Below are positions 527 through 24,744 of a stretch of DNA of 64,000 nucleotides, piece by piece. The notes beneath the pieces are model-generated. The model searched no databases. It was not told where the DNA came from and worked only from the letters and a program-made list of their open reading frames with translations. A program made the translations under genes and the position numbers. Position 1 is the stretch's first letter. Every line of letters starts with the position of its first letter. The stretch is from IMG/VR virus record IMGVR_UViG_3300045988_183673; one strand, 5' to 3'. Origin of the DNA: a virus.

Positions 527-938
527 TCATAAATTTTCGAAGATTAAATCTCTGTTTGGTTCGTCTCGCAAAGGGGCTCTGGCGGCAGACATATAATATA
601 CCCGCAAGCAAAAACAGCCGAAATGCACACTAACTTCAGGATATCGACTATGATACTTTCGTCAGAATACATCCTTTCGCTCTGCGTTATCCGCATAAGA
701 AATACTTCCAGATAAACAATCGATAACCAGAAGAATGTGGCACAAAAGAGCTTGATTTTGCGTTTGGTTATAAAATGGATACCGTCTTTATCATTTCGTT
801 TGATTGTTAATGGTTTTGTAGATACAACACTACATTTTCCTTGTTTGAGTAAGATTCTGGCAGTGAAAGCCAAGCACGGGAAAAGGTGTTTTCCATCCTT
901 TCCCACTACTCGGACCAAAAACTTGGCTTTCATGACGA

Positions 939-1622
939 TTACCCGTTGATAGCTTTCAGCACATCATCAGCAAGGAACCCGGAGGAATCGTCAACGTCAG
1001 TAGCATCATTCACTCCGAACGATGCAGCAAACTCATCCTTTACCGGAGCGCTCTTCTCGGCTGTTTTCTTCTTCACTACAGGCGTGGGCGCGATGAGTTC
1101 ATCGATTACGGAAGAGACATTGGACGCGTCAACGGGAGAAACTTCCTCTGCGGGGTTTGCGCCCAACGCAGGGAGATTATCCTCTTTAATGCTGGGAATG
1201 TATCCCGTCTTTACGGAACAGTCAATCTGTGCGCCCGTCTCCACCGCAATGGACTGGCAATGAATGTACTGTCCGCTCACGACACTGTCTTTTCGAACGA
1301 TGACCTTATCTCCATCGACGGAGCCACCAACAGTGCCATCGATGTCAACAACGCTGTCTGCGACAATGCTGCCGTTCACGCTGCCCTTGCTCATATACAC
1401 CATCTTGGCTTTGACATTGCCGTCGACATGAGCACCGTGCAGGACGAGCATACCGTCAATAACGACGTTACCCATGACAGTGCCGCGAATCTCGATGTTG
1501 CCACTGGACTCAAAATCGCCATTTAGTTTGGAATTCTCGCTGATGACATCCGAGACAGCATCTCGTGCATCAGCGGTTTCCTGAACAGTGCCATTAAACA
1601 TACTCTCAATATCCTGATTCAT
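939..1622 (-). CDS. Bactofilin-like protein (repetitive beta-helix G-x-V-x-G pattern) with an acidic/Pro-rich C-terminal tail
   Basis: The sequence IEIRGTVMGNVVIDGMLVLHGAHVDGNVKAKMVYMSKGSVNGSIVADSVVDIDGTVGGSVDGDKVIV matches the periodic bactofilin (DUF583) pattern. RBS AAGGAG 7 nt before the ATG at 1622. Confidence 0.5.
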   Translation of the reverse strand: MNQDIESMFNGTVQETADARDAVSDVISENSKLNGDFESSGNIEIRGTVMGNVVIDGMLVLHGAHVDGNVKAKMVYMSKGSVNGSIVADSVVDIDGTVGGSVDGDKVIVRKDSVVSGQYIHCQSIAVETGAQIDCSVKTGYIPSIKEDNLPALGANPAEEVSPVDASNVSSVIDELIAPTPVVKKKTAEKSAPVKDEFAASFGVNDATDVDDSSGFLADDVLKAING

Positions 1623-1648
1623 ACAAAATCTCCTTAACTATGTGTGTT

Positions 1649-2161
1649 TTAATTATTATACTCTTCGCTCGAAAGCTCTTCCATACCGTTTTGCCGCAGC
1701 TTTTCGTACTCAACAGGACTGATTTCCTGAATGTCGTACGCATCAAGCCCGGTATTTTCTTTATAGGTATTGAACAGTTCCGAACGAATCGTTTCCTTTA
1801 TCTGACGATTAACCAGCAATGGATTTTTGCCCAAGTTTACAGAAAACAGAGCATCCGTTCTAAAGTCGATTTGCATATCCTTTACGCTTAGAGCAACAAC
1901 CCTGTAATAAAGATTGTGCCAGCTATGGATTTCGCCGCCCTCGACAATTTTCATATCCAGATTTTGTTCGGGGACAAAATCGATGCTTTCCAGCGTGTAA
2001 TCGTCTCCCCATTTTTGCAGCAGCTCGTCCTTCAATGATTCAAGAAGCTGCTCCGCTTTTTCATCGGTCATCGCTTCCGGGTGATGGATGGTAATCGCCA
2101 TATTCTGTTTTACACGATTCCCATCCTTATCAAGAAGCCATGCCTGCACGTATAATTGCAT
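1649..2161 (-). CDS. Hypothetical protein (170 aa)
   Basis: RBS GGAGG 7 nt upstream of the ATG. A canonical promoter lies at 2189-2217 and an upstream terminator at 2221-2251. Confidence 0.6.
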   Translation of the reverse strand: MQLYVQAWLLDKDGNRVKQNMAITIHHPEAMTDEKAEQLLESLKDELLQKWGDDYTLESIDFVPEQNLDMKIVEGGEIHSWHNLYYRVVALSVKDMQIDFRTDALFSVNLGKNPLLVNRQIKETIRSELFNTYKENTGLDAYDIQEISPVEYEKLRQNGMEELSSEEYNN

Positions 2162-2188
2162 TTCATTCCTCCCTCATTCGTATATTCT

Positions 2189-2217
2189 TATTATACCACA
2201 AATAGAGTAAATAGTCA
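2189..2217 (-). promoter_or_regulatory. Sigma-A-type promoter, TTGACT-17-TATAAT (extended -10 TGGTATAAT)
   Basis: Minus strand TTGACTATTTACTCTATTTGTGGTATAAT. Confidence 0.65.
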
Positions 2218-2220
2218 AAC

Positions 2221-2251
2221 AAAAAAGGCCCACAGCGCAAAGCTGTGGGCC
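2221..2251 (-). terminator. Rho-independent terminator (GGCCCACAGC-gcaaa-GCTGTGGGCC plus T6 on the minus strand)
   Basis: Perfect 10-bp stem. The U-run follows on the minus strand immediately after the stop of the 2261..4207 gene. Confidence 0.75.
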
Positions 2252-2260
2252 AATTTATTT

Positions 2261-4207
2261 TTAGACCAGTTTGCGAATTACTTCGCGAACCTTATTGATG
2301 CCTTCTTCGTCTGCTGTTGCAGAAGGAATGATGGTCATCTCTGCAGATTCCATATAGCTGCCTGTAATCATGTAGCTGCTAATCCAATCCGCCAGCGTAC
2401 GCAGGTCGACTGAACCATCCGTCAGATACAAGGTCTTCAGGGTGTTCAGTACAGCGTGGTATGCTTTCAGAATCTGAGGAACCCTGACGCTCTTCGGGCA
2501 GCCAGTCATAGAACGCAAACGCTCTGCGAGAATGGTATCCTCGGGCGCATGGATGTCCATTTTAATCTGGAAACGAGACAAAACGGACTGGTTCATATCC
2601 CGGCAACCCTCATAGGAGATGTTTGTAGTAGCAATGATAACGGCATCGGGATGGCGGCGAATCGTTTCACCGGTAGGAAGGTTTACGGCGCTGGTAGAAT
2701 CCAGCAAACCATTCAAACCGACAAGAACACCGGGCTTTGCAATGACGGTGGGTTCCTGAATCTCGCAGACCCAACCATTACGAATGGCCTGAATCAGAGG
2801 AGACTCAACATAGTGGAACCCATTCGCGCCGGAATCCGCACCGCCTGCCGCTGCACGCTGAATAATTGCAGCAAGACAATCGGCTTCTGTCGCATCGCGT
2901 TTTTTCTTGCCAGTGATAGCCTTGTACGCCATTTCGGGGTCATTGGAAATGTCCGTTGCGGTAGGCAGAGCGTTCAAGTCCAAATCGCCATAGGCATTCT
3001 GATACTCGTCAATGCTCATAGGCGTCTCGTTCGGCTTATTGGGCATCATCTGGCCGAGCAGGTCATAGATTTCCGTATCGCTCGAACAGGTAACAAACAC
3101 ATAAGGCAAGCCGAGACCGAGAGCAATATCCTTTGCGGTTTCCGTTTTACCGGTACCGGCCTCACCGCGCAGCAGAATGTTGCGGATGGGACGAGGCGTC
3201 TTGGAACTCTTCTGGATATGTTTGCAAAGCGAATAGGCTTCTACGCCGGGAATGTGCGAATCAGGAACGATAAGCAGTGCCTTCTCCGTATCAGTCAAAA
3301 CGCGCTTCTTATTGAGAAGGAACGCTTTTTCCAAGTCTGCGGCAGTTTTAGGCTTCTCAGACTCGGGTTCCGGCTCAGAAACAGCCATATCCTTGCCACG
3401 ACTATCCTTGAAAGGAGAAATGTTGCCGATAAAGGCGGTGGGGGCGGCTGCATCCGTGGCAACCAGAGTATCGTACAGACCGCCAACACTGTTGACAGTA
3501 GGATTGGGAATCACTCTGGACTCCAATTTGGAGTTTGCAACCTTATCTCTCGTGCTCATGAAGTAGGCAATATCTGCCAGCTTACATGCGCATTTTTTTG
3601 CTGCATCCACGTCATTTTTATTCACACTGGGCGTACTGGCCTTTGCAATAATTCTCTTGTAAAAAACAAGAAGTTTATTAAAGGTGTCGTGAAATTCCTT
3701 ATCCTGCATGTAGTAACCCCACATACAAAACAGGAAAGGCTCGCTGTAAACTTTAAGCGTTTTCTGGACATCAGCAAGACTCTTCGCATTCCCTTTCTCA
3801 TCACCAAGAAAAAATTTATTCGAGGAGAATTTGTAGAGGATGGAGAGCCGTGTTCCGAAACCGATTTTCTGAGAGTTGTATGTCGAGGAAACGGTATAAG
3901 CAGCAACACAGGTCTGATTGTCGATATCAGCGGTATTGTTGTAGCCGTAACCGTCACCACACATAGGCCATGTATGAACCTGCAAAGCACGGTTCAACGC
4001 TTTAGCAAAACCTGCGGTCATCATACCAGAGTTCGTGGGCATCTTCTTGTTGCCATTCGAGTAGTACAAGGAGCGGCGTGCAATCGCCGCAGTCTCGTCG
4101 TTGAAGGAACCGTAGTTCCCGGTGTATAAATCGCGGTCATTCAGAAAATCCACAAGACCATTGATGGGCAAGGAAGTGTTTCTGTGAAAATGAAAAATGC
4201 AATCCAT
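2261..4207 (-). CDS. AAA+ ATPase (AAA_5/MoxR-GvpN-like C-terminal half) with an N-terminal domain of unknown function
   Basis: Walker A LLRGEAGTGKTETAKDIALGLGLPYVFVTCS, hhhhE Walker B-like GWVCEIQE, sensor DAVIIATTN. Confidence 0.65.
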   Translation of the reverse strand: MDCIFHFHRNTSLPINGLVDFLNDRDLYTGNYGSFNDETAAIARRSLYYSNGNKKMPTNSGMMTAGFAKALNRALQVHTWPMCGDGYGYNNTADIDNQTCVAAYTVSSTYNSQKIGFGTRLSILYKFSSNKFFLGDEKGNAKSLADVQKTLKVYSEPFLFCMWGYYMQDKEFHDTFNKLLVFYKRIIAKASTPSVNKNDVDAAKKCACKLADIAYFMSTRDKVANSKLESRVIPNPTVNSVGGLYDTLVATDAAAPTAFIGNISPFKDSRGKDMAVSEPEPESEKPKTAADLEKAFLLNKKRVLTDTEKALLIVPDSHIPGVEAYSLCKHIQKSSKTPRPIRNILLRGEAGTGKTETAKDIALGLGLPYVFVTCSSDTEIYDLLGQMMPNKPNETPMSIDEYQNAYGDLDLNALPTATDISNDPEMAYKAITGKKKRDATEADCLAAIIQRAAAGGADSGANGFHYVESPLIQAIRNGWVCEIQEPTVIAKPGVLVGLNGLLDSTSAVNLPTGETIRRHPDAVIIATTNISYEGCRDMNQSVLSRFQIKMDIHAPEDTILAERLRSMTGCPKSVRVPQILKAYHAVLNTLKTLYLTDGSVDLRTLADWISSYMITGSYMESAEMTIIPSATADEEGINKVREVIRKLV

Positions 4208-4323
4208 GTTTTATTCCTTTCTGTAAGTAAAGGTTCCGTTAGAAACCAAGAGCGGGGGTAGAGGATTTTATTCCCCTATCCCCGCAGTATTTAATTTACC
4301 GTGTTATTTTGATTGTGCCTTAC

Positions 4324-4950
4324 TTAGAACGGCAGGTCATCGCTGTCCTCCAGCAGTTCCATATCGTCGTTCATAGACGGGGCCTGGAATGCAGGCTGAG
4401 GAGCGGCGGCAGCATGACTGGGAGCAGCGGATGCGGCAGGTGCAGCACCGCCACCGACATTGTCGCGCAGAGCAATGGGGGTGTTCTCCTTCTTTGCCCA
4501 GCGAGAAATGTCCAGCGTAGAAACATAAACGGTCGGGTTGCGATACGTTTTACCGTCGCGACCGGTGGTTTCACGAATCTCAGACAGACCAGTCAGGGTG
4601 AGTTCGGTGCCGGAACGCAGCATACCCTTGCGAAGCATGTTCGCGTAACGAGTAGCGGCGCTGCCGGAAATCATCAGCGTGTAGAACAGGCCAGCGCCGT
4701 CTTCCTTGTCAGACAGACCGGCGTAATGAGCTGCCTTATCGGCATAGTCCGCCACCACAGGAATGGTGACAAACTCCTTGCCGCTCTTGTTCATGCCAAT
4801 ATAGGCCGTACCCTTCGGGTTCAGGCGTGCAATGGCACAAACAAAGCGAGAGTTGGGGTTCTTGTTCAGTCGGTCAGACAAATACTGAAGGCCCTTGCTG
4901 TCAATAGAAGACATGGGCATGTTGAAACGGGTATTATTAGTGTTATCCAT
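4324..4950 (-). CDS. ssb: Single-stranded DNA-binding protein
   Basis: OB-fold-like N-terminus, a Gly/Ala/Pro-rich linker, and the acidic C-terminal tail ...MELLEDSDDLPF typical of SSB. Start set at MDNTNN (RBS GGAG 6 nt upstream). The ORF track begins 19 codons earlier. Confidence 0.8.
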   Translation of the reverse strand: MDNTNNTRFNMPMSSIDSKGLQYLSDRLNKNPNSRFVCAIARLNPKGTAYIGMNKSGKEFVTIPVVADYADKAAHYAGLSDKEDGAGLFYTLMISGSAATRYANMLRKGMLRSGTELTLTGLSEIRETTGRDGKTYRNPTVYVSTLDISRWAKKENTPIALRDNVGGGAAPAASAAPSHAAAAPQPAFQAPSMNDDMELLEDSDDLPF

Positions 4951-5009
4951 AACGTACTCCTTTTTTAAATAAAAAATGTTTCTTGTACGATTAAGAGAAA
5001 AAGCCACTC

Positions 5010-5040
5010 CTTTAATGTTAATAAAAGAGTGACCACGCTT
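5010..5040 (-). terminator. Leader hairpin plus U-run (GTCACTC..GAGTGGC-TTTTTCTC) between the box at 5046-5090 and the ssb start
   Basis: Inverted repeat read from the sequence. Same relative position as the conserved leader hairpins elsewhere. Confidence 0.4.
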
Positions 5041-5045
5041 TTTAT

Positions 5046-5090
5046 TTATCGTACTACTAATATAGTATTAACTTTGCAGCAACTTGCAAT
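5046..5090 (-). promoter_or_regulatory. TTGCTGCAAAGT-box promoter-like element (copy 1 of 12), upstream of ssb
   Basis: Minus strand TTGCAAGTTGCTGCAAAGTTAATACTATATTAG. Conserved core TTGCTGCAAAGT, then TACTAT about 4 nt downstream. Confidence 0.45.
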
Positions 5091-5130
5091 ACCTTTGTAG
5101 CCACTACAGCTATTTTAATTGGGCATTTGC

Positions 5131-5294
5131 ATTTCAATCTAACGCAACCCGTGTGGGTTGCAACGCATCCCATCGTCCTCATTCTTGATTTTATTTCAAT
5201 CTAACGCAACCCGTGTGGGTTGCAACACGACCTTTTCAATCAGGTACAGATTATGATGCAATTTCAATCTAACGCAACCCACACGGGTTGCAAC
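5131..5294 (-). CRISPR. CRISPR-like mini-array A. Three 34-nt repeats (5131-5164, 5193-5226, 5261-5294); unique spacers of 28 and 34 nt.
   Basis: Minus-strand repeat GTTGCAACCC-ACAC-GGGTTGC-GTTAGATTGAAAT (7-bp stem, 4-nt loop, ...ATTGAAAT 3' end as in type I-C repeats). In repeat 3 the loop is inverted (GTGT vs ACAC). No cas genes in the window. Confidence 0.5.
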
Positions 5295-5460
5295 AGCAAA
5301 CTTGTACAAACGAAACAACAAGTTGTCGTGCATTTTGCACAATGTTTGTCTGCTTTTTGACCAAACAATATGGTCAGATACTACTTACTGCAATGGAATC
5401 ATATCCTTTCTTTATAATATTTGGTGCGAAGCAATCGGCAAAACTATGCTCACTTATCAT
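5295..5460 (-). repeat. Leader-like segment, copy 1 (about 165 nt, roughly 85% identical to 6200-6350). Contains a TTGC(C/T)G-16-TATTATAAAG promoter-like motif and short palindromes.
   Basis: Direct duplication seen by eye. Sits immediately on the 5' side of array A on the minus strand. The (+) ORFs 5288..5644 and 6193..6417 are artefacts of this duplication. Confidence 0.55.
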
Positions 5461-5476
5461 TCGCACCTGTAGCAAA

Positions 5477-5511
5477 CAAAAATACCGTCACCTCATAATG
5501 AGATGGCGGTA
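5477..5511 (-). terminator. Conserved accgccatctc-type hairpin plus U-run (copy)
   Basis: Minus strand ATACCGCCATCTC-attatgag-GTGACGGTAT-TTTTGTT. Downstream of the box at 5546-5590 and upstream of leader copy 1. Confidence 0.5.
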
Positions 5512-5545
5512 TGTTGATTTTGAATATTTGTTTGCTTTTATTTTT

Positions 5546-5590
5546 GGAATGTATTCAGTATACCTACTTTGCAGCAAATTGCAAGAGAAC
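5546..5590 (-). promoter_or_regulatory. TTGCTGCAAAGT-box (copy 2), pointing toward the leader of array A
   Basis: Minus strand TTGCTGCAAAGTAGGTATACTGAATAC. Confidence 0.45.
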
Positions 5591-5662
5591 GCCCCACAAG
5601 GGCTTATAATTTCGTTTTTTCTGGGGATACTATATCCATCTTAACTTGAGGAGTGGTTTTTT

Positions 5663-6019
5663 ATGGCTGATTTCCCTTATTTGACAAAAACGGAGAAGAT
5701 TGTCATGCGTATTTTTTGGCATGCCGATAAGCCATTGACTCAATTGGATGTAATGGAAATCGCCAGACAGCGCGGTGAAATGAAATGGAACCCGCATTAT
5801 ATCTTCCTTGTTTTGGACTCGTTGGAGAAAAAGGGTGTTTTAATTGAATCCGGACACACCCGTGTCGGGAAAGCGTATGCGCGATTGTTTGAACCAGTCA
5901 TAAGCCATGTTGAATATGTCGTCCTTTATGTTTTCGAAGTGCTCCACGACAATGAAATTGAGGAATTCCTTGCCGCATTTACTGCCAAAAAAGAGGAAAA
6001 AGAAAAGAGCCTGCATTAA
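5663..6019 (+). CDS. BlaI/MecI/CopY-family winged-helix transcriptional repressor (orphan, no BlaR1 partner in the window)
   Basis: EKIVMRIFWHADKPLTQLDVMEIARQRG...WNPHYIFLVLDSLEKKGVLIE matches the penicillinase-repressor fold signature. RBS GAGGAG 9 nt upstream of the ATG at 5663. A (+) terminator-like hairpin lies at 6008-6036. This is the only solid (+)-strand gene between 900 and 32,000. Confidence 0.7.
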   Translation: MADFPYLTKTEKIVMRIFWHADKPLTQLDVMEIARQRGEMKWNPHYIFLVLDSLEKKGVLIESGHTRVGKAYARLFEPVISHVEYVVLYVFEVLHDNEIEEFLAAFTAKKEEKEKSLH

Positions 6020-6028
6020 GCAGACTCT

Positions 6029-6199
6029 TTTTTGATTTAACGCAACCCATGCGGGCTGCAACCGCCAAAGTTTTACGCTGATTCGCTCACTGCACAATTT
6101 CAATCTAACACAACCCATAAGGGTTGCAACGGTTCATCTACGATGGCACACGCTGGGCCCCCGATATTTCAATCTAACACAACCCATGAGGGTTGCAAC
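6029..6199 (-). CRISPR. CRISPR-like mini-array B. Repeats at 6166-6199 and 6097-6130 plus a degenerate terminal repeat at about 6029-6062; spacers of 35 and 34 nt.
   Basis: Repeats read atttcaatctaacacaaccc-ataa/atga-gggttgcaac (+). They differ from array A by a stem SNP and the loop sequence. The terminal repeat has degenerated, as at the distal ends of CRISPR arrays. Confidence 0.45.
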
Positions 6200-6350
6200 A
6201 GCAAACTTGCACAAACAAAGCAACAAGTTGTTATGCATTTTGTACAATGCTTGTCTGTTTTTTGACTATGCACAATAGTCAAATATCATTTACTATAGCT
6301 ATATCATATCCTTTCTTTATAATACTTGGTACGAAGCGACCAGCAAATTG
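6200..6350 (-). repeat. Leader-like segment, copy 2 (paralogue of 5295-5460). Contains the perfect palindrome TTGACTAT-gcaca-ATAGTCAA.
   Basis: Aligned by eye to copy 1. The conserved blocks are caacagcaaacttg(t/c)acaaac..., gcattttg(c/t)acaatg, and catatcctttctttataata(t/c)ttggt(g/a)cgaagc. Confidence 0.55.
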
Positions 6351-6355
6351 CAATG

Positions 6356-6850
6356 TCATTTTCCAAAGAAACCAAGAACAATCCCATTCACAAAATCAAC
6401 CAGAGGCTTATTGCTAATCACGCCAAGCAGCATCAGCGCAAATACGATTGCACCTGCGATTAAAACAATACGAAGGATTATAAATATAGGAAGACAGATT
6501 CGCCAATAGTATCCGCGTATCAGCCACAACCCACCATAGTTGCTTTTCAATCTATTGCAACGTTGACATGAGGGCACAAGGTTCTTTATGGAGTTGACTC
6601 CCTCTTTGGGTAATAGTCTTCTTGCAAGCCAATTCTTCTTCGCCATATCAACAGATATGATATGGTCTACTTGCATTTTGTCTGTATGGATTCGCCGCCC
6701 ACAATATACGCAATGATAATAGTTTCCGGGTTCGGGCGGCCAGTGTCTTATGAATTCTGTTCTGTAGTTTGTTGAACGAGTATATTTATCAGGAACGCGC
6801 AAAAACATCTTGCATCCAGTGATAGTGCTTATTCTTTGTTTCAAAAACAA
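6356..6850 (-). CDS. HNH endonuclease with a C-terminal transmembrane segment
   Basis: YHCVYCGRRI...MQVDHIISV...NLVPSCQRCNRLK gives the CxxC/H-N-H/CxxC motif. Hydrophobic C-terminus. The start may be internal (MFLRV, 6808), since the ORF overlaps the upstream gene. Confidence 0.7.
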   Translation of the reverse strand: MFLKQRISTITGCKMFLRVPDKYTRSTNYRTEFIRHWPPEPGNYYHCVYCGRRIHTDKMQVDHIISVDMAKKNWLARRLLPKEGVNSIKNLVPSCQRCNRLKSNYGGLWLIRGYYWRICLPIFIILRIVLIAGAIVFALMLLGVISNKPLVDFVNGIVLGFFGK

Positions 6851-7610
6851 AAGAAGATAGAAAGGTGTACTGTTTCAAAACCTCAGATGACTGAATGCCA
6901 TACTGTTCCCCGATATCATAAACCACAACGGTTTTCTTGTCGTGCAATCCGCGTTTCCGCTCATCTTCCTCCTGATTTGCCAGAGTAATAAGATGACGGA
7001 TGGGAACGAGAAGTCCGGTCCCATGATAGATGACATTCTTATTCTGTCCGTCTTTCCCGCCATAATTATCATTTGATGCCATGTAATCATAGGGGTAATC
7101 TTCCGTACACAGAATCTCGCGGCCCTGACTATCAACGCAGCGCCTTGCTGCCTCTCCCATATGATAATTATGGAGCCACTCGATAAAATCAAGGCGATTG
7201 ATACGGAAGATTTGATTGGTAGCCGGATAATAATAGAAGATGAATTTTGCCTTAGAGCCGTACAGCCAGCCAATCTTGGTCGATGCACTTTTCACATGAT
7301 AACCCTGCTTAACAAGCGTTACGACTTCCGTCTCAACATAAACGTTCCCCGAATCATTGAGGTCAGTCTTAACCTCAATAAGCCAAGACGACTGTTTAGC
7401 GGCAGGAATAGGATTCCCTTCACTGTTTTTTACTTGCCGAACACGGAAATCGACATCTTTGTCTTGGAATACCGCATCATCTCTCAGGTCATCAATTTCG
7501 CACTGCGGGGAATTTCCATAAATTTTCAAAAATAGATTTTCCCCGATTTTCCCGACCATCATCTGACTCTTCATATCAAAATGGTCATCATTATTGAACT
7601 CATAAGCCAT
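6789..7610 (-). CDS. Hypothetical protein (about 273 aa)
   Basis: Long ORF with RBS GGAAAGGA upstream of the ATG at 7610 (GTG alternative at 7619). Confidence 0.55.
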   Translation of the reverse strand: MAYEFNNDDHFDMKSQMMVGKIGENLFLKIYGNSPQCEIDDLRDDAVFQDKDVDFRVRQVKNSEGNPIPAAKQSSWLIEVKTDLNDSGNVYVETEVVTLVKQGYHVKSASTKIGWLYGSKAKFIFYYYPATNQIFRINRLDFIEWLHNYHMGEAARRCVDSQGREILCTEDYPYDYMASNDNYGGKDGQNKNVIYHGTGLLVPIRHLITLANQEEDERKRGLHDKKTVVVYDIGEQYGIQSSEVLKQYTFLSSFVFETKNKHYHWMQDVFARS

Positions 7611-7637
7611 GGGAATCACATCCTTTCCAATGTATCT

Positions 7638-8896: not shown

Positions 8897-8925
8897 TTAA
8901 ATCACCTCCCATACGACATATTTAT

Positions 8926-8954
8926 ATTATACCACAAATAGCAATAACGGTCAA
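8926..8954 (-). promoter_or_regulatory. Sigma-A-type promoter, TTGACC-17-TATAAT (extended -10)
   Basis: Minus strand TTGACCGTTATTGCTATTTGTGGTATAAT. Confidence 0.65.
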
Positions 8955-17165: not shown

Positions 17166-17191
17166 ATTTTCGATTTCCTCCTTTTTGGGAA

Positions 17192-18214: not shown

Positions 18215-18243
18215 AATTTCTTCCTTTCTGTTTTTATTATTTT

Positions 18244-19008
18244 TTAGCTATTTTCTTCGATGCACAATTCGCTGCTACGAATGTTTTCCAACCATTTTTC
18301 ATCCATAACATTGCCAATACGATACTTCCTCTGGGATTCATAGGACCAGTCACAACCGACGACAACATCACCGATGGCATTCAGATACAGTTCTCCATCA
18401 GTGATATTGATTCCGGCTTCATTTCCCGGTTTACAATCTCTCTCATATTCAATCACAAGTTCCGAAACTATAGGTTCTCTCTTTAGAATCTGATTTGCGT
18501 TGATAGTTTTGGCACGACCCTCGTTAATGAGATATTGCTTGCGAAAATCCGTTACTTTATCATTACGATTATATCTCAAACCGCTAAGAATACTCGCACT
18601 TTCGCGGGGAATTTCTTCATGAAAATCATCGCTGCTGATACAAAGACCACACGAATAGTCATCCTTGTCATCGCAATAATTCCACCATTCGAGGCTCGCC
18701 AAAGCGAGTTCTACCATCTTATCGACGGCTTTCCCGTTGGTTACCATATAAAAACTCCCAACGGAAATGTTTCGCTCTCTTACGGCGTTCAAAGTATAGC
18801 GAATAGCAGGAATGTTCAAAGAAATTTCTCCACCCGTAAAGGTCAAGGAACTGATGTATCCTGCATTAGCAAAACTGTCAAGAAACGCATCGATATATCT
18901 TTCCTGAATATCGACCGCCTCCGCATCACCACGCAAACAATGCGCACAGCACATATTACAGCGACGGGTAATCTCAATTACCACATCACATGCACTCGAA
19001 ATATACAT
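18244..19008 (-). CDS. Radical SAM enzyme (CX3CX2C) with additional C-terminal Cys pairs
   Basis: ITRRCNMCCAHC (C-x3-C-x2-C) near the N-terminus, and a GGE SAM-binding motif (TFTGGEISL). Start set at MYISSA (RBS AAAGGAG 8 nt upstream). Confidence 0.65.
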   Translation of the reverse strand: MYISSACDVVIEITRRCNMCCAHCLRGDAEAVDIQERYIDAFLDSFANAGYISSLTFTGGEISLNIPAIRYTLNAVRERNISVGSFYMVTNGKAVDKMVELALASLEWWNYCDDKDDYSCGLCISSDDFHEEIPRESASILSGLRYNRNDKVTDFRKQYLINEGRAKTINANQILKREPIVSELVIEYERDCKPGNEAGINITDGELYLNAIGDVVVGCDWSYESQRKYRIGNVMDEKWLENIRSSELCIEENS

Positions 19009-19025
19009 TCTATTTACTCCTTTCA

Positions 19026-19337
19026 TCAATTCTCGTCCGCAAAGCTCTCATTGCGGTCAACGATGATATCCACATCAAGTGGTGTAATTTTACCCAGACC
19101 GTAATTCAAGAAGAACGAGCCGGGAATGTCATCGACATCGCCCCAGTTCCAGCAACCACAGTTGATTTCAAGCTGTCGTTTGCCTTCGTCCGTCTTGAGA
19201 TAATCTTTGATTGCGCCGCGCAGGACGCTTTCCGGGTCATAGATTTGCTCCGGATTATAGCTGAATTGCATCAGCGTGCATTCCGTTGTGGATAAGTCAA
19301 TAGCCTCATTGGCAACAATTGTAAAAACCTTTGTCAT
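19026..19337 (-). CDS. Hypothetical protein (about 104 aa)
   Basis: Start set at MTKVFTIV (RBS GAGGAGGA 5 nt upstream). Confidence 0.45.
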   Translation of the reverse strand: MTKVFTIVANEAIDLSTTECTLMQFSYNPEQIYDPESVLRGAIKDYLKTDEGKRQLEINCGCWNWGDVDDIPGSFFLNYGLGKITPLDVDIIVDRNESFADEN

Positions 19338-19359
19338 AGTAATCCTCCTCAATAAACAG

Positions 19360-19815
19360 TCAGGCACAACGAACGCGAATGACATTATCATCATTCGACA
19401 AGCAAACAATCACGTCCACATCTGGCCCCTCTTTCTCAAGAGCACCTTCAAGGATTGGCTTGATTTTGTGCCATTGATTTTCTGTGATTTTGCAGCCGGG
19501 GCTCATAAGCAGAATATTTGCTTCGGCCAGCTTTGCTTTCATGACCACTTGTAGGAAACAACCGTATAGGTATCCGTAATTCACCTTGTTACTTTCAAGA
19601 CAAATCATATCTGCTATTACGGTCCTTTTATTACCATAGCAGTTCACAACATGTCCCAAGTGATGTTCAGATTTGTCATACCGTACCTTGGCATCCGGAA
19701 ACATGCTTTCAATAGATTCGTTTTTGAAAACACCACTGCTATCACAAAAAACACAAACGATATTTTTGCCGGGAAACTCCTGACTTGATAAACAGCTTTT
19801 TGTCTTTTTTATCAA
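19360..19815 (-). CDS. Hypothetical Cys/His-containing protein (151 aa, TTG start)
   Basis: ORF with a TTG start. No in-frame ATG lies near the RBS. Confidence 0.4.
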   Translation of the reverse strand: MIKKTKSCLSSQEFPGKNIVCVFCDSSGVFKNESIESMFPDAKVRYDKSEHHLGHVVNCYGNKRTVIADMICLESNKVNYGYLYGCFLQVVMKAKLAEANILLMSPGCKITENQWHKIKPILEGALEKEGPDVDVIVCLSNDDNVIRVRCA

Positions 19816-19844
19816 TTTTTCTTCATCATCCTTTCGGCGATAAC

Positions 19845-19880
19845 AAAAAATACCGCCACCTCTTACGAGATAGCGGTATG
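19845..19880 (-). terminator. Conserved accgccatctc-type leader hairpin plus U-run (copy)
   Basis: Minus strand ATACCGCTATCTCGTAAGAGGTGGCGGTAT-TTTTTGTT. Lies 30 nt upstream of the 19815 start. Confidence 0.5.
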
Positions 19881-19904
19881 TTGATTTTGAATTGTAATTG
19901 TATT

Positions 19905-19950
19905 TTATCTATCGAATATACTTAGTATATCGATTTTGCAGCAATTTGCA
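19905..19950 (-). promoter_or_regulatory. TTGCTGCAAA-box (copy 7) with the palindrome TCGATATACTAAGTATAT
   Basis: Minus strand TTGCTGCAAAATCGATATACTAAGTATATTCGATAGATAAAA. Confidence 0.45.
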
Positions 19951-20008
19951 AGCGCAGCTATTTAGTGGCGCTTCAACTTTTTCCGGGGGTTTTATTTTTT
20001 CGCTTTAC

Positions 20009-20806
20009 TTACAGCAAACTCATCTCTGCACGATACGCATTGGCGTCGTAGCCCCAGATATTACAAGCAAAATCGATTGCTGCGTTACCTTTGCTGGGAT
20101 AACCGTCGTCAACAAAATCTCCTTTGCAAAGCGCATACCATCCACAATTACTTCCGATATCCTCATCCGCATATTTTACACGAATATTGGCGTGTGGAAA
20201 TTTACGGCTCAGTTCGACAATGGCGCATGCAGGTGTATTCCAAGGGGTTTTAAAATTGATGGCAATTTCCGTATCATTTATTCTACGGATATTCACATCA
20301 AAAACATCCCACTTTACGCCCCAGTTTGCGACACGCCAATAATACCATGAAGCATATCCATATTTTACGGCATTTTCCAAAGCACGCTCCGCTACAGTAT
20401 CGAACTCTTCGACATTATAGGGGATACGTTTCAGGTTGATGAGTTTGCTATCTTTCACATGTTCCAGTTTGGAGCGAGCTTCCGCAGCTTCCTTGCAAAC
20501 ACCAACCATATCTGATGCAGTAAGTTTTTCCTTCCTGTGCAGGAGAAAAGTTTCTCTGCAAATAGCCTTTCTTACGTTTTCCGGATACTTCTCCGGGTCA
20601 ATTCCGTATTTATTTACGGCCGCCCATGCGAGCATCCTGTCACATGGCGATACGATTTGCAGTGATTCCGGCATAGGAACAACAGACTGAAGCGAAAAAT
20701 CTTTTTCGCCATCATCGTCTTTTCCCTTGACACGATTCAGAAAATCCTCCAACTCTGCCTGAGAATTGAAAGAAACAGACATGATATTCATGATATTGTT
20801 TGCCAT
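20009..20806 (-). CDS. Hypothetical protein (265 aa)
   Basis: RBS AAGGAG 7 nt before the ATG. Confidence 0.55.
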   Translation of the reverse strand: MANNIMNIMSVSFNSQAELEDFLNRVKGKDDDGEKDFSLQSVVPMPESLQIVSPCDRMLAWAAVNKYGIDPEKYPENVRKAICRETFLLHRKEKLTASDMVGVCKEAAEARSKLEHVKDSKLINLKRIPYNVEEFDTVAERALENAVKYGYASWYYWRVANWGVKWDVFDVNIRRINDTEIAINFKTPWNTPACAIVELSRKFPHANIRVKYADEDIGSNCGWYALCKGDFVDDGYPSKGNAAIDFACNIWGYDANAYRAEMSLL

Positions 20807-20823
20807 TTATTTTCTCCTTTGTC

Positions 20824-21012
20824 TTACGCGGGTATGCGTACGCAAGAATAGTGGCAAGCTCCACAATTCAGGAACTTTGCCCGCTTCATCGCCTCATCCA
20901 AGCTGAACCGCGTCGCTTCGTTAATGTTGGCAGTATCACTCTTACACTCTACGTAAAAACGCACATCTCCAAAAAACGGGTCTTTACGGCTTAGCGCATA
21001 CATATTTTCCAA
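20824..21012 (-). CDS. Hypothetical small Cys-containing protein (62 aa, TTG start)
   Basis: RBS GAGGAGG 7 nt before the TTG. Confidence 0.45.
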   Translation of the reverse strand: MENMYALSRKDPFFGDVRFYVECKSDTANINEATRFSLDEAMKRAKFLNCGACHYSCVRIPA

Positions 21013-21024
21013 AATAAGTCCTCC

Positions 21025-21765
21025 TCAAATGTACCTCTCCCAGAACTTTTCGAATTCCTCGCTCGGCATCTGTGCTTCCGTTTCATCCAACAGTCTTTCG
21101 TAAGAATCACTGGAAACATCGGTGCCAATAAAATCGGCAACGGCATCATGACCGCGCTGCATCAAGGCGTCTTTCAGAATCGCCCAACGACATTCGTGAA
21201 TGGCATCATCCAGCGTTTTGTTGCCAGCAGGCTGCCAATACTCGCCTGTCTGCTGAATTCGATAAAACTCATCCAGCGCATCATCAACATTGTTTTCGCT
21301 AAGAATATCGTCAATAAAATTGACAGGATAATCCTTGCCGTTGATTTCCACTTCTGCATAACTGAAACAGTCGTCGTCACACGGCATTGCTGCACAGGTG
21401 ACATCGAAAATTTCGTGCGTTTTCTTGTTTACCTTGCAAGGCAACTGGAATGTTGCTCCGGACTCGAAGTAAGAAAAGACAACCGCTTCCTCAACATCGT
21501 TGTCGGGACATTTCGCAGACTGGATGAATTCCGGCATAGACAGCACATCAATACTCTCTCTTCGGTCGCCCATGGCAGGATAAACCTTCATGATTGTATA
21601 ACCATCATGCTGCAGCTTTCGGATAGCACGGCACAGGTCGAGATGCATTTCATGAAGACTGATGCCACTACCTCGTCCGTCTTTTTTGGTATAGATTTCG
21701 ACAACTACATCTTCAGAGGTGGTCTGAACAACATAATAAGTCTTATCATTACAAATCTTAAACAT
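21025..21765 (-). CDS. Hypothetical protein (about 246 aa)
   Basis: Start set at MFKICNDK (RBS GAAGGGAGA 8 nt upstream). Confidence 0.5.
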   Translation of the reverse strand: MFKICNDKTYYVVQTTSEDVVVEIYTKKDGRGSGISLHEMHLDLCRAIRKLQHDGYTIMKVYPAMGDRRESIDVLSMPEFIQSAKCPDNDVEEAVVFSYFESGATFQLPCKVNKKTHEIFDVTCAAMPCDDDCFSYAEVEINGKDYPVNFIDDILSENNVDDALDEFYRIQQTGEYWQPAGNKTLDDAIHECRWAILKDALMQRGHDAVADFIGTDVSSDSYERLLDETEAQMPSEEFEKFWERYI

Positions 21766-21786
21766 AGCACTTATCTCCCTTCTCAA

Positions 21787-21984
21787 TCAAACAAAAGCCA
21801 GAAAATCGTTGGCCGGAATCTGTCGCTGGGCATCGTAAGCGGTGCCGTAGACATCATCACCCCAACTGATTTGCACATCCTTCGTCCACAGAGCAAGCTC
21901 AGACATTTTTGCTGCCACGGCTTTTGCGGAGCTGCAGATATACTTCTTGACGGCGTTGTTTTCTTTTACGTTAATTGTAAACAT
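21787..21984 (-). CDS. Hypothetical small protein (about 65 aa)
   Basis: Start set at MFTINVKE (RBS AAGGAGG 8 nt upstream). Confidence 0.45.
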   Translation of the reverse strand: MFTINVKENNAVKKYICSSAKAVAAKMSELALWTKDVQISWGDDVYGTAYDAQRQIPANDFLAFV

Positions 21985-22003
21985 TTCAATTTCCTCCTTA
22001 ACA

Positions 22004-22036
22004 CAACAAAAAACAGCCATCTCGATTGAGATGGCT
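22004..22036 (-). terminator. Conserved leader hairpin (cagccatctc...gagatggctg) plus U6, 22 nt upstream of the 21984 start
   Basis: Minus strand CAGCCATCTCAATCGAGATGGCTG-TTTTTTG. Confidence 0.5.
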
Positions 22037-22084
22037 GCACGAACAGATTTTGAACTAAAACAAGTCAAGGAATTGATACTTTGA

Positions 22085-22128
22085 TTTATCTTAGTTCCTT
22101 AATTATATCTACTTTGCAGCAATTGACA
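22085..22128 (-). promoter_or_regulatory. TTGCTGCAAAGT-box (copy 8)
   Basis: Minus strand TTGCTGCAAAGTAGATATAATTAAGG. Confidence 0.45.
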
Positions 22129-22159
22129 AGATAGCCACAACAGGAATGCAACATCGTAT

Positions 22160-22381
22160 TCACGGTACTTTTTCAACGACATCTTCACCGTAAACCACGA
22201 ACAGACCAGAGCCGTTATCCCAGCAAACCATGATACTGCCGGTATCGTCTATACCTGAAACTGTGCCGAGTGTTTCAATAGGCGGAGCCTGAATATCATC
22301 CATTTTCAGCAGTTTCACGCGTGTCCCAGCTGGATATTCGGCACGGAGCGCAGCGACGATTTCTCGATTTGGGAAAGTCAT
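22160..22381 (-). CDS. DUF4314-like small protein
   Basis: GTRVKLLKMDDIQAPPIETLGTVSGIDDTGSIMVCWDNGSGLFVVYGED matches the DUF4314 pattern, which is often found on conjugative-element and phage anti-restriction (ArdC-type) proteins. Confidence 0.5.
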   Translation of the reverse strand: MTFPNREIVAALRAEYPAGTRVKLLKMDDIQAPPIETLGTVSGIDDTGSIMVCWDNGSGLFVVYGEDVVEKVP

Positions 22382-22397
22382 AAATGTACCTCGCTTC

Positions 22398-22937
22398 TTA
22401 ATATGTCACGGTGTCAAAGAACTCCTGACATTCCTCATCGTTCAACACAACACCAAAGTAGGCAACACGCTCGACGGTGGTTTCCCACACCTTAACGGTA
22501 CGCGTCATAGGCTGAACGACCCACGAATGCTGTCGCCAAAGGCCATCTTCGCTCAGGGCATATCCGGTCGCAATCTGACATCTGCCACGATTTGCATCCC
22601 ACAGATAAGCAGCGTTCTGATGGCAACGACAATCTTCGCCCTTCTTCATGTACTTGGAGCCATAGAAGAACTGTCCTCGTTCCAAAACTTTTTCCGCATC
22701 CTCATCACGGGTATTGAGCAAAACCTCATCGCCGCCGAAAGTTAAAATTCTATCACGCAGAGCACGCAAAGTCTTTTTCATTTCGTTTGTGAGCCAAGGC
22801 GCGGTAGCGTCCTCGTTGTACAGCTGCATTGCCTCCACTCGTTTTTTCCAGTCCTCACTCATCGGATTCCACTTGATAGGTTTCGCAACCATATCAGGAG
22901 AAGTCATAGGCGTTTTAGCGTTCCAACTATATTTCAT
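22398..22937 (-). CDS. Hypothetical protein (about 180 aa)
   Basis: Start set at MKYSWNAK (RBS GAGGAGGG 10 nt upstream). Confidence 0.45.
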   Translation of the reverse strand: MKYSWNAKTPMTSPDMVAKPIKWNPMSEDWKKRVEAMQLYNEDATAPWLTNEMKKTLRALRDRILTFGGDEVLLNTRDEDAEKVLERGQFFYGSKYMKKGEDCRCHQNAAYLWDANRGRCQIATGYALSEDGLWRQHSWVVQPMTRTVKVWETTVERVAYFGVVLNDEECQEFFDTVTY

Positions 22938-22953
22938 ATCGATTATGCCCTCC

Positions 22954-23301
22954 TCATTTACAAAGTGCGGTATCAATACTCTTCGTAATAATGACTGTCC
23001 ATTTGGGCGATGCGTTCTTGGCAATATCCACACCGTAGCTGATAAGTGCGCCGGGATTCAGCAAAGTGTCATCGGCGGCCGCCATAACATCATCAACATA
23101 GATAACAGCAGGCTTATCAGCCAACATCGCAAGAGAAAATGCAGCCATTCCGCTATCAGTTCCCTTTTCTTTTTCAATATGCCTTAACAACATACCCAAA
23201 AAAGAACCAGTGCCGAGAGACTTTCCCTTGACAGAGATATGAATAATCTCCGGCTGAACAGTCCCAAAATCACCATGCTGAATTGTAATATCTTTAAGCA
23301 T
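22954..23301 (-). CDS. Hypothetical protein (115 aa)
   Basis: RBS AAAGGAA 4 nt before the ATG. Confidence 0.5.
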   Translation of the reverse strand: MLKDITIQHGDFGTVQPEIIHISVKGKSLGTGSFLGMLLRHIEKEKGTDSGMAAFSLAMLADKPAVIYVDDVMAAADDTLLNPGALISYGVDIAKNASPKWTVIITKSIDTALCK

Positions 23302-23368
23302 TATATTCCTTTCTTATACTTTTTAATAAAAACCGCTCACCCGAAAAGGTAAGCGGTTGGGTTTTGAA

Positions 23369-24052
23369 TTATGCAAGCAAAGGATATATTTCTTTCTTTA
23401 CAGCTCTCATCAGTGCTGCAGCATGCGCTGCGTTTTGTGCATTTCCGGCACCGGCATGAGAAATCTTAGGATTGACATGCGTGATGAAATTCTTTTTGTA
23501 AGGAGAAGAAATTTTCTTTGCAGCATCGATAATCTTGTTTGTGTTTTCAGTGTTAATTTTTTGCTGAATACACAATTCTCGAAGTCGTGCGCAAAAAACT
23601 TCCTTACTTTTGCTATCAGTGATAGCAGAAATACTTTTCACCGTTTCCGGTGATTCTTTTTGTGCGGGTGCTGCATCACAAGTCATTCGACTAACACAAA
23701 ATCCATTTTCGCACATGGTCTGAATAAGCCCATCATATCCTTTATCTCCCGATACGATGATATAATGGCTTTTCTTCCCTGTTGTGCAAAGGCTTCCAAG
23801 CTTGGCCGCAATGTGAAAATCCATGCTGTTTTTTCCTGCATTGGAATTGCAGAACTCAACTTGGTTAGCTGGATATTTTGTCAGGAATACCTGCAACTCT
23901 TTGAGTGACATACAGGTGGCCTCTGGACCGAGAAAGATAATTAGTTTATCTCTTTTGGTCTTGAAATACACTGTCTTTACCCATTTTTTAGGGATATTCT
24001 CAGTGTCAATCAGCCAAACGGTTCGAGTGCAGCTCACACATTTCACCCCCAC
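23369..24052 (-). CDS. NYN/PIN-like (LabA-type) nuclease-domain protein
   Basis: VWLIDTENI...IIVSGDKGYDGLIQ matches the NYN-domain acidic-residue pattern. Start ambiguous (GTG at 24052 or ATG at 24040). Confidence 0.45.
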   Translation of the reverse strand: MGVKCVSCTRTVWLIDTENIPKKWVKTVYFKTKRDKLIIFLGPEATCMSLKELQVFLTKYPANQVEFCNSNAGKNSMDFHIAAKLGSLCTTGKKSHYIIVSGDKGYDGLIQTMCENGFCVSRMTCDAAPAQKESPETVKSISAITDSKSKEVFCARLRELCIQQKINTENTNKIIDAAKKISSPYKKNFITHVNPKISHAGAGNAQNAAHAAALMRAVKKEIYPLLA

Positions 24053-24339
24053 ACTTCGGTGACTTTCCGAGGGATGCCGTGCTTGTCGATTTTCCGTCGA
24101 TAAATCGTGAATTTGCTCTTGGGATGAGCATTCACATAATCGTTTCTTGCGACATCGGTGTTCGCAATCAACAGATTTTTATCGGCAATAAGAACGCTTT
24201 CCCATCCGGAATCGAGAAGCGTACTGGCAACATCCTTGAAAGATACGTCTGCAGGCGTATCGCACTTACAAACCCCTCGTGCGATAGGATGCGCAGTGGC
24301 AATGATTTTTGCTGCCGTCATCACAGTCTCGTAACTCAT
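24043..24339 (-). CDS. Hypothetical protein (98 aa)
   Basis: RBS GGAGG 7 nt before the ATG. Confidence 0.5.
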   Translation of the reverse strand: MSYETVMTAAKIIATAHPIARGVCKCDTPADVSFKDVASTLLDSGWESVLIADKNLLIANTDVARNDYVNAHPKSKFTIYRRKIDKHGIPRKVTEVWG

Positions 24340-24351
24340 AGTGTCCTCCTA

Positions 24352-24609
24352 TCACGCCACCTCGAAATACTTTTCGACATCGCTGTTGATAGAACGCGCA
24401 GGAACACCCTTGGTCTTCTCACTGTAGTAGCCACGCTTTTTCAGCGTGTTCTTAACAATAGAAATGCTCTTGTCGCTGCGCATGGTACGCTTTCTCTTTT
24501 CGATGCGTGCAGAACGAATGCGCTTTTCGTACTTCTGCATACGCACAACATCCATGATGATAGGAGCAGTAGTCTCCGCGATATACTCATTAAAAGTTTT
24601 CATGTTCAC
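24352..24609 (-). CDS. Hypothetical basic protein (85 aa)
   Basis: RBS GGAGGA 9 nt before the ATG. Confidence 0.5.
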   Translation of the reverse strand: MNMKTFNEYIAETTAPIIMDVVRMQKYEKRIRSARIEKRKRTMRSDKSISIVKNTLKKRGYYSEKTKGVPARSINSDVEKYFEVA

Positions 24610-24640
24610 ATATCCTCCGTAATATATTATTTTTCTAAAT

Positions 24641-24675
24641 AAAAAAGGCAGCTATTTTCTCAAAAATAGCTACCT
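24641..24675 (-). terminator. Leader hairpin plus U6 (GGTAGCTATTTTTGAGAAAATAGCTGCC-TTTTTT), 35 nt upstream of the 24609 start
   Basis: Read from the sequence. Sits about 100 nt downstream of the box at 24745-24790. Confidence 0.5.
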
Positions 24676-24744
24676 TTAGTACATTGTGATTGGCGATAAT
24701 TCAATCATGCACGCCCACAAAACTCTGGTACGATGCATTGTGTG

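Follow-up and report, generated by a model that had tools for sequence, protein, structure and literature searches.

A small-gene backbone block in a probable Hodor megaplasmid of the human gut, with predicted promoter-leader-terminator cassettes, CRISPR mini-arrays and a predicted divergent SSB

Hodor conjugative megaplasmids were described by Yuan et al. (bioRxiv, February 2026; PMC12934698) as elements with a mean size of 357 kb from human gut and wastewater, which have been misfiled as huge phages in viral databases and whose GC content is 47.1% in group G1 and 44.6% in group G2. According to the text of that preprint, they carry a Rep_3 gene with more than 2 kb of non-coding DNA, ParA, ParB, ParM, VirB4 and VirD4, together with a short MOBH-like HD nuclease and a separate helicase. 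In G2, a non-coding stretch of 268-381 bp lies upstream of the gene for the HD nuclease, with one hypothetical gene between them (PMC12934698). The same text reports a surface module with the gene order hypothetical protein-SecY-SecG-SecE-trigger factor-sortase B, a protein of about 2642 aa with MBG domains that adjoins a giant one of more than 7300 aa, and TerL in inserted prophages only; of arrays, it mentions only 'an apparently degraded repeat array' (PMC12934698). Here, we describe a 64,000-nt stretch of DNA (the window), filed in IMG/VR as virus record IMGVR_UViG_3300045988_183673, which is probably a piece of such a megaplasmid, and we focus on a dense block of small genes in its left part.

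Other described regions also bear comparison with this locus. The auxiliary regions of huge phages hold large transfer RNA (tRNA) sets, a transfer-messenger RNA (tmRNA), nucleotide-metabolism genes, HNH genes, CRISPR (clustered regularly interspaced short palindromic repeats) mini-arrays without cas genes, and many ORFans. Where plasmids carry CRISPR systems, the targets are mostly other plasmids, and there are also mini-arrays of the CreA-like or regulatory kind. The leading regions of conjugative elements can form anti-defence islands, in which the small open reading frames (ORFs) are mostly anti-restriction, anti-CRISPR or SOS-inhibiting and are expressed from the incoming single strand (Samuel et al. 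2024; PMC11541004). In such regions, a gene polarity that uses the transferred strand (T-strand) as template is expected (PMC11541004).

We propose that the block is part of the Hodor backbone and carries conditionally expressed functions in establishment, DNA handling and inter-element conflict, a reading that we give a probability of roughly 60%. A single-stranded DNA-binding protein (SSB), nucleases, a deaminase and CRISPR RNAs would be among the products serving these functions, and a Hodor-encoded factor would control their expression through a shared promoter or a leader terminator.

The window is a piece of an extrachromosomal element of about 350 kb; in human gut metagenomes, this element is widespread and nearly clonal. 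Public assemblies encode the exact AAA+ protein of the block in 412 of their blocks and its Api92-like protein in 1273; the contigs with the AAA+ protein come from the human gut and measure 217-355 kb, with none above 1 Mb. In IMG/VR, contigs with the same sequence are filed as 'viral' and reach 346 kb. The GTDB representative genomes contain distant homologues only and no close relative, and megablast of the block against phage and plasmid collections gave no match. Searches with tblastn returned distant matches only for the AAA+ protein against phages and, for ParM against plasmids, 23-32% identity to Clostridia megaplasmids and no close relative.

This element is probably a Hodor conjugative megaplasmid, probably of group G2. 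As far as the text of PMC12934698 allows the comparison, it shares with G2 its human-gut origin, a size of about 350 kb, a GC content of about 45% and its filing in viral databases as a huge phage. The window holds the surface module in the Hodor order at 26363-30724, and its 2671-aa MBG protein beside a giant protein matches the Hodor layout of a ~2642-aa MBG protein and a giant one. Common to both are also ParA/ParB, ParM and a Rep_3 gene beside more than 2 kb of non-coding DNA, and the element has a candidate for the short HD nuclease, with an upstream gap in the 268-381 bp range, as well as repeats of type I-C style; nothing in the element contradicts membership. The nature of the element, a point left unresolved in an earlier note made from these letters without database searches, is answered by this assignment to an already described megaplasmid family. 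That note had also seen a resemblance to conjugative elements, which holds for the element as a whole (conjugative according to PMC12934698), for the SSB in the block, for the Dam methyltransferase further right, and for the side of the predicted oriT and the presumptive template strand of the block genes; a leading region is thereby supported in part only. 'Inocle', a giant oral Streptococcus element, was ruled out by its GC content of 24-32% against about 45% here. The features to the right of the block are the following.

26363..30724, minus strand: secretion module in the Hodor gene order (Pfam, NCBIfam), with a 91-aa hypothetical protein as one of its members
26363-27334, minus strand: sortase B (NCBIfam sortase_srtB, E=7e-22)
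27346-28509, minus strand: trigger-factor-like protein (Pfam)
28566-28817, minus strand: SecE (precomputed match)
28814-29068, minus strand: SecG-like protein (NCBIfam secG)
29084-30424, minus strand: SecY (Pfam)
40601-41860, minus strand: ParM/Alp-like protein (Pfam)
45429-45947, minus strand: Dam (Pfam)
47616-49151, minus strand: flotillin (Pfam)
52381-60396, minus strand: MBG_2 surface protein of 2671 aa with nine MBG_2 stretches (Pfam)
From 60761, minus strand: giant DUF11 protein of at least 1079 aa, running off the window with no stop codon before its end

The block itself is plasmid backbone, without boundaries of its own and not separately mobile. It lies at the same place with the same flanks in all sampled genomes, which differ by internal insertions and deletions only; a separate insertion with boundaries, which the earlier note had suggested looking for, is not supported. 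On the left, the block naturally ends at the tRNA array, and on the right at the sortase B gene (26363). The tRNA-Thr and tRNA-Glu genes at the left edge, once put forward as attachment targets, belong to the element's own set of 25 tRNAs and a tmRNA and do not serve as attachment sites. By the public gene calls on near-identical contigs, from which our gene counts come, window 939-24603 holds 34 protein genes, all but one of them on the minus strand, where about 45 genes, all on the minus strand, had been claimed; the count does not hold, and the strand claim does for all but the winged-helix gene at 5663-6019 (+). Nearly all long ORFs of the window lie on the minus strand, and its GC skew is negative throughout. 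The main features of the block and its left edge are listed here.

14..229, minus strand: tRNA-Thr and tRNA-Glu, the first two of the element's 25 tRNAs and tmRNA
544..933, minus strand: RRXRR remnant of 129 aa, N-terminus only (Pfam RRXRR, E=2e-5)
939..24603, minus strand: small-gene block, 34 protein genes in about ten short transcription units
939-1622, minus strand: bactofilin-domain protein (Pfam)
1649-2161, minus strand: 170-aa protein, in synteny with the SSB gene in a ~52%-identical relative (L095/L096)
2261-4207, minus strand: AAA_5 / AAA+ ATPase of the MoxR/CbbQ/midasin type (Pfam; phmmer against PDB: midasin, CbbQ, NorQ)
4324-4950, minus strand: predicted SSB in which a ~150-aa OB-fold domain is followed by an Ala/Pro-rich linker and a conserved acidic tip at the C-terminus (...DDLPF)
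5663-6019, plus strand: winged-helix protein of 118 aa with a weak Penicillinase_R/BlaI match (precomputed Pfam on public gene calls)
6356-6808 or 6356-6850, minus strand: HNH nuclease (Pfam HNH)
6789-7610, minus strand: 273-aa protein without a family
7638-8513 or 7638-8576, minus strand: non-specific nuclease with a hydrophobic N-terminus (Pfam Endonuclea_NS_2)
12994-13473 or 12994-13605, minus strand: dCMP deaminase (Pfam)
15759-17165, minus strand: 468-aa phrog_12834 protein (PHROGs)
18244-19008 or 18244-19029, minus strand: radical SAM enzyme (Pfam)
20009-20806, minus strand: Api92-like/DUF1281_C protein (Pfam); 20009..24037 also holds small ORFs without an assigned family
22160-22381, minus strand: DUF4314 protein (Pfam)
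23369-24037 or 23369-24052, minus strand: PIN7/NYN protein (Pfam)

The block ORFs are real genes under purifying selection: across 21 related loci, the polymorphic codons of the 34 ORFs are 684 times synonymous and 301 times non-synonymous, with almost no stop codons. Nine domain calls made for the block in the earlier note also hold, eight of them through Pfam and the SSB through its predicted fold and C-terminal tip, and Pfam likewise bears out the orphan Dam and the ParM/Alp-like protein further right. Two supposed 'RNase H-like' genes and the XRE regulators gave no Pfam match at E<=0.01. About 25 block ORFs have no match in Pfam, PHROGs, NCBIfam or PADLOC, and PADLOC on the block gave domain-level or weak matches and no complete defence system. 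Among PDB sequences, the 468-aa protein matched nothing and the radical SAM enzyme gave a generic match to YydG only.

Much of the block appears to be expressed from a single kind of promoter. Where 0.02 copies of the plasmid-specific motif cTTGCnnTT-TGCTGCAAAGT-nnnTAnAnT are expected, the window has 12, every one of them on the minus strand. A further 29 sites lie on those parts of the 346-kb contig that were read, and the motif is also present in a divergent relative. With what reads like a -35 and a -10 element around a conserved spacer, it is a predicted promoter. Behind most copies come a conserved start (..GATAAATAAAA..), in many cases TTCAAAATC, and an intrinsic terminator hairpin. From a stop codon, the sequence typically runs through the promoter, a leader of about 70 nt and the terminator to the next gene. 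The hairpin core (C/T)ATCTC...GAG(A/G)TGG is conserved while its outer pairs covary, and RNAalifold found compensatory changes in 6 of 11 pairs.

5062, 5557, 8556, 11355, 12571, 15715, 19924, 22102, 24767 and 26327 (span 5062..26346), minus strand: ten copies of the promoter motif
50670 and 60651, minus strand: two further copies of the promoter motif
11281..11310, minus strand: leader terminator hairpin ATACCGCTATCTC-loop-GAGGTGGCGGTAT with a T-run, 45-75 nt downstream of the promoter
12499-12524, 19850-19879, ~5483-5510 and 15622-15639, minus strand: other copies of the leader terminator, with a variant at 5002-5034

The earlier claim of individual promoters and terminators therefore needs rewording: there are about ten units, all under one repeated promoter motif, and the hairpins lie in the leaders rather than at gene ends. 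A terminator directly behind a promoter suggests control by attenuation or antitermination, or small RNA genes. Rfam at gathering thresholds recognized two tRNAs only in the window, and a permissive search gave chance-level matches only, so the leader RNA does not belong to a described family. At three promoter copies (11350-11375, 12565-12592 and 19918-19945), the -10 element and the transcription start together form a perfect palindrome, GATATACTaAGTATATC, which could be an operator. When folded as single-stranded DNA, six promoter regions formed short local hairpins only, and no Frpo-like long stem over -35/-10. We tentatively suggest that promoter, leader of about 70 nt and terminator might make up a plasmid-wide riboregulatory switch (antitermination, attenuation or a small RNA family) that would keep dozens of units, including the block and its mini-arrays, silent until a plasmid factor acts, for example after entry into a host. 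As part of the same tentative proposal, CRISPR cassettes would move within the plasmid, and solitary repeats that sit between a promoter and a ribosome-binding site would couple the expression of those genes to Cas processing or binding.

The cassettes also act as recombination sites, because one public genome (L020) lacks exactly the DNA between two of them. These two promoter-leader-terminator cassettes (12495-12598 and 19850-19951) are nearly identical, and the junction in L020 lies inside the repeated sequence of about 100 nt. The lost module is as follows.

12592..19842, minus strand: module of 7.25 kb absent from L020, with the dCMP deaminase, the radical SAM enzyme, the 468-aa protein and 8-9 small ORFs

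Other internal changes between samples include a 3.4-kb deletion and small insertions, and one variant (L018, 1152-2690) has a 512-aa RRXRR protein inserted between the SSB and AAA+ genes. The RRXRR domain is typical of IscB-type proteins. Between lineages, the content of the block turns over: in a relative whose SSB is about 52% identical (L095/L096), about 10 of the 34 block genes have homologues, and only the order SSB, AAA+ ATPase, 170-aa protein, bactofilin is kept.

Between the HNH and SSB genes, the block contains two CRISPR mini-arrays that the earlier note had missed, along with the winged-helix gene that lies between them and is the block's only plus-strand gene.

5131..5294, minus strand: mini-array B, three repeats GTTGCAACCCACACGGGTTGCGTTAGATTGAAAT and two spacers, with a leader at 5295-5442 and a promoter motif at 5557-5576
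6029..6199, minus strand: mini-array A, three repeats (the last degenerate) and two spacers, with a leader at 6200-6347 and a terminator at 6003-6031

The two leaders are about 150 nt long and 81% identical. The repeat GTTGCAACCCACACGGGTTGCGTTAGATTGAAAT has what we take to be the type I-C form; it is palindromic and ends in ATTGAAAT, and spacers measure 33-36 nt, with some atypical ones of 28-30 nt at the trailer end. Among 12 sequences (11 loci and the window), repeat number and spacers vary, the leader-end spacers being different and the trailer-end spacers common. For the conserved array-A spacer at 6131-6165, the 65.5-kb human-gut contig ORRW01000250.1 (L100, 1-4204) holds a perfect protospacer (35/35), which is flanked by a 5' TTC protospacer-adjacent motif (PAM). 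This protospacer lies inside a gene for a 794-aa protein, beside genes for a 65-aa and a 413-aa protein; by eye, the three are a primase/helicase, an excisionase-like and a tyrosine-integrase-like protein. The contig resembles an integrative mobile element, whose host could hint at that of Hodor. Because the spacers differ between samples and one of them has a perfect protospacer with a TTC PAM, the mini-arrays are most simply read as functional type I-C-like arrays that target another mobile element. With these arrays, the block contains defence at least in part, rather than anti-defence. None of the 37 spacers matched the reference phage collection, the comparison with the reference plasmids gave one implausible near-match (Arsenophonus plasmids), and a spacer search of IMG/VR returned the arrays themselves only. 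Neither the 64-kb window nor the 50 kb on its left side yielded a cas gene; four proteins of 502, 661, 248 and 554 aa left of the window are not Cas proteins.

The same repeat is dispersed over the element. On the 346-kb contig 3300023499_000220, it occurs at at least 13 sites, solitary or in arrays of 2-6, most with the same leader, and in IMG/VR it is restricted to a few large gut contigs, several of which were shown to be the same element.

~91.9, 103.7, 104.5, 149.5, 182.6, 222.6, 237.1, 243.6, 246.2, 263.1, 275.7, 278.8 and 288.8 kb of contig 3300023499_000220 (L066-L086): repeat sites

In one variant (L011 20806-20839, contig position ~91.9 kb), a solitary repeat sits exactly between the promoter and the ribosome-binding site of a TROVE/Ro60-like gene, a repeat that L003 lacks. 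Another variant (L077 3484-3781) has, at the place of window 52234/52248, a 300-bp cassette of leader and three repeats upstream of a gene for a 235-aa protein. This inserted cassette is 81.5% identical to window 5131-5423, and its first 'spacer' copies the neighbouring 5' untranslated sequence. Other Hodor spacers match Hodor DNA beside a TTC PAM, namely a lipoprotein gene of another variant (1 mismatch), the leader-terminator cassette (3 mismatches) and a tRNA gene of the element (5-6 mismatches).

The SSB encoded at 4324-4950 is so divergent that no sequence library recognizes it. It has no match in Pfam, PHROG, NCBIfam or PDB sequences, with none to Pfam PF00436 even at E<=0.1, and an exhaustive HMMER search of 1.8 billion representatives found two distant homologues only and no canonical SSB. 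Behind its Ala/Pro-rich linker, the protein ends in ...EDSDDLPF, and all of five homologues keep the DLPF part unchanged. AlphaFold gave a poor model from the single sequence (predicted local distance difference test, pLDDT, 46.6), and an AlphaFold2 model from a five-sequence alignment reached a pLDDT of 70-87 in its core. In Foldseek searches of the PDB with the latter model, the top 50 matches were all bacterial SSBs at probability 1.00, with TM scores of up to 0.80 (Bacillus subtilis SsbA). The predicted assignment as an SSB stands on this fold and on the domain architecture, outside PF00436; the earlier call was right, with the Foldseek matches and the DLPF tip in its favour and none from the sequence libraries.

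The position of the block on the element follows from the left flank, which was read on contig 3300023499_000220 and whose main calls were checked with Pfam and NCBIfam. The 25 tRNAs and the tmRNA (tag peptide DTNRYAAPIAA) flank the TROVE/Ro60-like gene to the left of the window (L029 3125-17121). Leftward, they are followed by an HD protein, NrdD, a NADAR gene and a 269-bp non-coding stretch, then by the genes for a 256-aa hypothetical protein, a 225-aa HD protein, an SLT transglycosylase and a topoisomerase, and beyond these by a RecG-like helicase, a 905-aa protein, an ORF-free stretch of about 2.4 kb, Rep_3, ParA and ParB. The replication and partition genes on this contig match Rep3_N/C, ParA (AAA_31/CbiA) and ParB_N. 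The 225-aa HD protein, preceded by the 256-aa hypothetical gene and the 269-bp gap, matches HDIG (3e-4) and weakly the MobH relaxase (0.033). This layout fits the 'compact region' of PMC12934698 in its G2-type arrangement, and by the criteria described there an origin of transfer (oriT) is predicted from context about 24 kb to the left of the block. The 269-bp stretch (L052 3670-3938, contig position ~75.3 kb) contains the standard promoter motif, leader and terminator, which recur at more than 30 other sites, together with one extra inverted repeat, CAGACAGCAATAGTTGTCTG.

Between the predicted oriT and the block, which is 24-48 kb away and on the opposite side from the HD nuclease, lie about 20 protein genes, the 25 tRNAs and the tmRNA; transcription of the block runs towards the predicted oriT. 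If the oriT prediction is correct, the block would enter a recipient early, within the first 7-14% of the plasmid, and would be transcribed from the transferred strand. Like 33 of the 34 block genes, each of the 41 distinct promoter sites, which span at least 230 kb, points towards the predicted oriT, so polarity does not mark the block; such plasmid-wide one-strand polarity more likely reflects co-orientation with replication. Beside the predicted oriT, the first gene on the window side is the NADAR gene (TIGR02464, 7e-30; L052 3939-4397), which also matches the NCBIfam 'NADAR family anti-phage protein' model, below the cut-off of that model. Homologues of TROVE with 51-64% identity occur in other large IMG/VR contigs, likewise inside tRNA clusters.

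Several points weigh against a backbone block of establishment, DNA-handling and conflict functions. No known anti-defence family (ArdA, KlcA, PsiB or Acr) was found among the block ORFs in scans of Pfam, PHROGs and NCBIfam, and a promoter with a terminator close behind it could equally belong to a small RNA gene rather than to an attenuator. The prediction of oriT is weakened by the finding that the 269-bp stretch is another promoter-leader-terminator cassette, and the MobH match of the HD protein (E=0.033) is weak. Strand polarity and the promoter both extend over at least 230 kb, and these 'leading-side' features do not discriminate the block. VirB4, VirD4, VirB6 and cas genes were not seen in the ~120 kb of the element that were read, so conjugation and a type I-C system rest on PMC12934698. 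That the block might be a classical leading-region anti-defence island is, in our view, unlikely. It does lie on the predicted leading side of oriT, with genes templated by the presumptive T-strand, it is rich in ORFans with quick turnover, and an SSB in the block, an orphan Dam in the window and a NADAR gene as the first beside the predicted oriT would all suit such an island. However, the block starts about 24 kb from the predicted oriT, past about 20 genes and 25 tRNAs, its orientation is that of the whole plasmid, no Frpo-like hairpin covers -35/-10, the library scans gave no anti-defence match, and the CRISPR arrays are defence.

The arrays, with a real protospacer in another mobile element, could instead indicate a plasmid defence island that protects plasmid and host against phages and rival elements rather than serving establishment or anti-defence, as could the nucleases, the PIN domain and some weak PADLOC matches: a dCTP-deaminase domain (E=7e-30, domain only), pVip (1.5e-6), a PtuB-type HNH and IetA (Walker A only). 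We consider this improbable: except for the deaminase domain, the PADLOC matches are generic and at domain level, there is no complete known system and no cas gene nearby, and the core of SSB, AAA+ ATPase and bactofilin is unlike a defence system. More improbable still is the early or auxiliary region of a huge phage, with the viral classification in IMG/VR right and the megaplasmid reading wrong. The contigs are indeed filed as viral, several proteins match PHROGs, and 25 tRNAs with a tmRNA, NrdD, dCMP deaminase, HNH genes and mini CRISPR arrays are common in huge phages, but Rep_3 with its long non-coding origin region, ParA/ParB, ParM, the topoisomerase and the sortase/SecY modules speak for a plasmid. 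Inspection by eye of the ORFs in the ~120 kb read, of which Pfam scans covered only part, brought up no capsid, portal or terminase gene, and the text of PMC12934698 places TerL in inserted prophages only. Integration at a tRNA gene as a genomic island of a bacterial chromosome, to which the two tRNA genes at the left edge of the window might point, can practically be dismissed: these tRNAs run into the array of 25 tRNAs and a tmRNA and then into plasmid replication genes, no contig exceeds 1 Mb, GTDB representatives include no close relative, and the flanks are the same in all samples.

Some further regions of the element were noted in passing. Window 33490-38890 is an operon for five or six membrane or uncharacterised proteins (236, 474, 227, 353, 164 and 368 aa), which shows a weak SAF-domain hint only and is not recognizable as a type IV secretion system. 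On contig 3300023499_000220, the stretch at 223-249 kb holds, with all gene identities read by eye, a second ParB-like gene, RecD2-like and UvrD-like helicases, a DnaC-like ATPase, two TnpB-like genes and a CCA-adding enzyme, as well as a CRISPR array of six repeats.

Hodor megaplasmids occur in thousands of human gut samples, and most of their genes have no assigned function. The present analysis places the block on the plasmid map, near the predicted oriT and between the tRNA/tmRNA set and the surface module. If its small ORFs do act during establishment, they would be candidate anti-defence proteins from gut Bacillota, where few are known. The promoter and leader-terminator cassette could define the regulatory programme of the plasmid, the SSB that sequence models miss offers a testable handle, and the protospacers of the mini-arrays can show the plasmid's competitors and may help to find its host.

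Compared with Hodor as described so far, the promoter-leader-terminator cassette and the scattered CRISPR cassettes are new as far as the text of PMC12934698 shows; its main text, methods and legends contain neither these dispersed mini-arrays with variable spacers nor the tRNA/tmRNA set, the promoter-leader-terminator cassette or the divergent SSB. With the leading-region islands of PMC11541004, the block has in common the predicted first-entering side, the T-strand as template, an SSB, an orphan methyltransferase and many small ORFs; it differs in lying 24-48 kb off the predicted oriT, in having no known anti-defence genes, Frpo-like promoters or umuCD boundary, and in an orientation bias that is here a property of the whole plasmid. 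The auxiliary regions of huge phages share the tRNA set, tmRNA, NrdD, dCMP deaminase, HNH genes, cas-less mini-arrays and ORFans, whereas the element has a plasmid replication and partition module, and inspection of the parts read turned up no gene for virion or packaging functions. Like other plasmid-borne or CRISPR-derived mini-arrays, those of the element have 1-6 repeats and a leader of their own, lie far from cas genes, and include one spacer that targets a mobile element. Unlike these, they form at least 13 leader-repeat cassettes across one replicon, some of them as polymorphic insertions in 5' untranslated regions.

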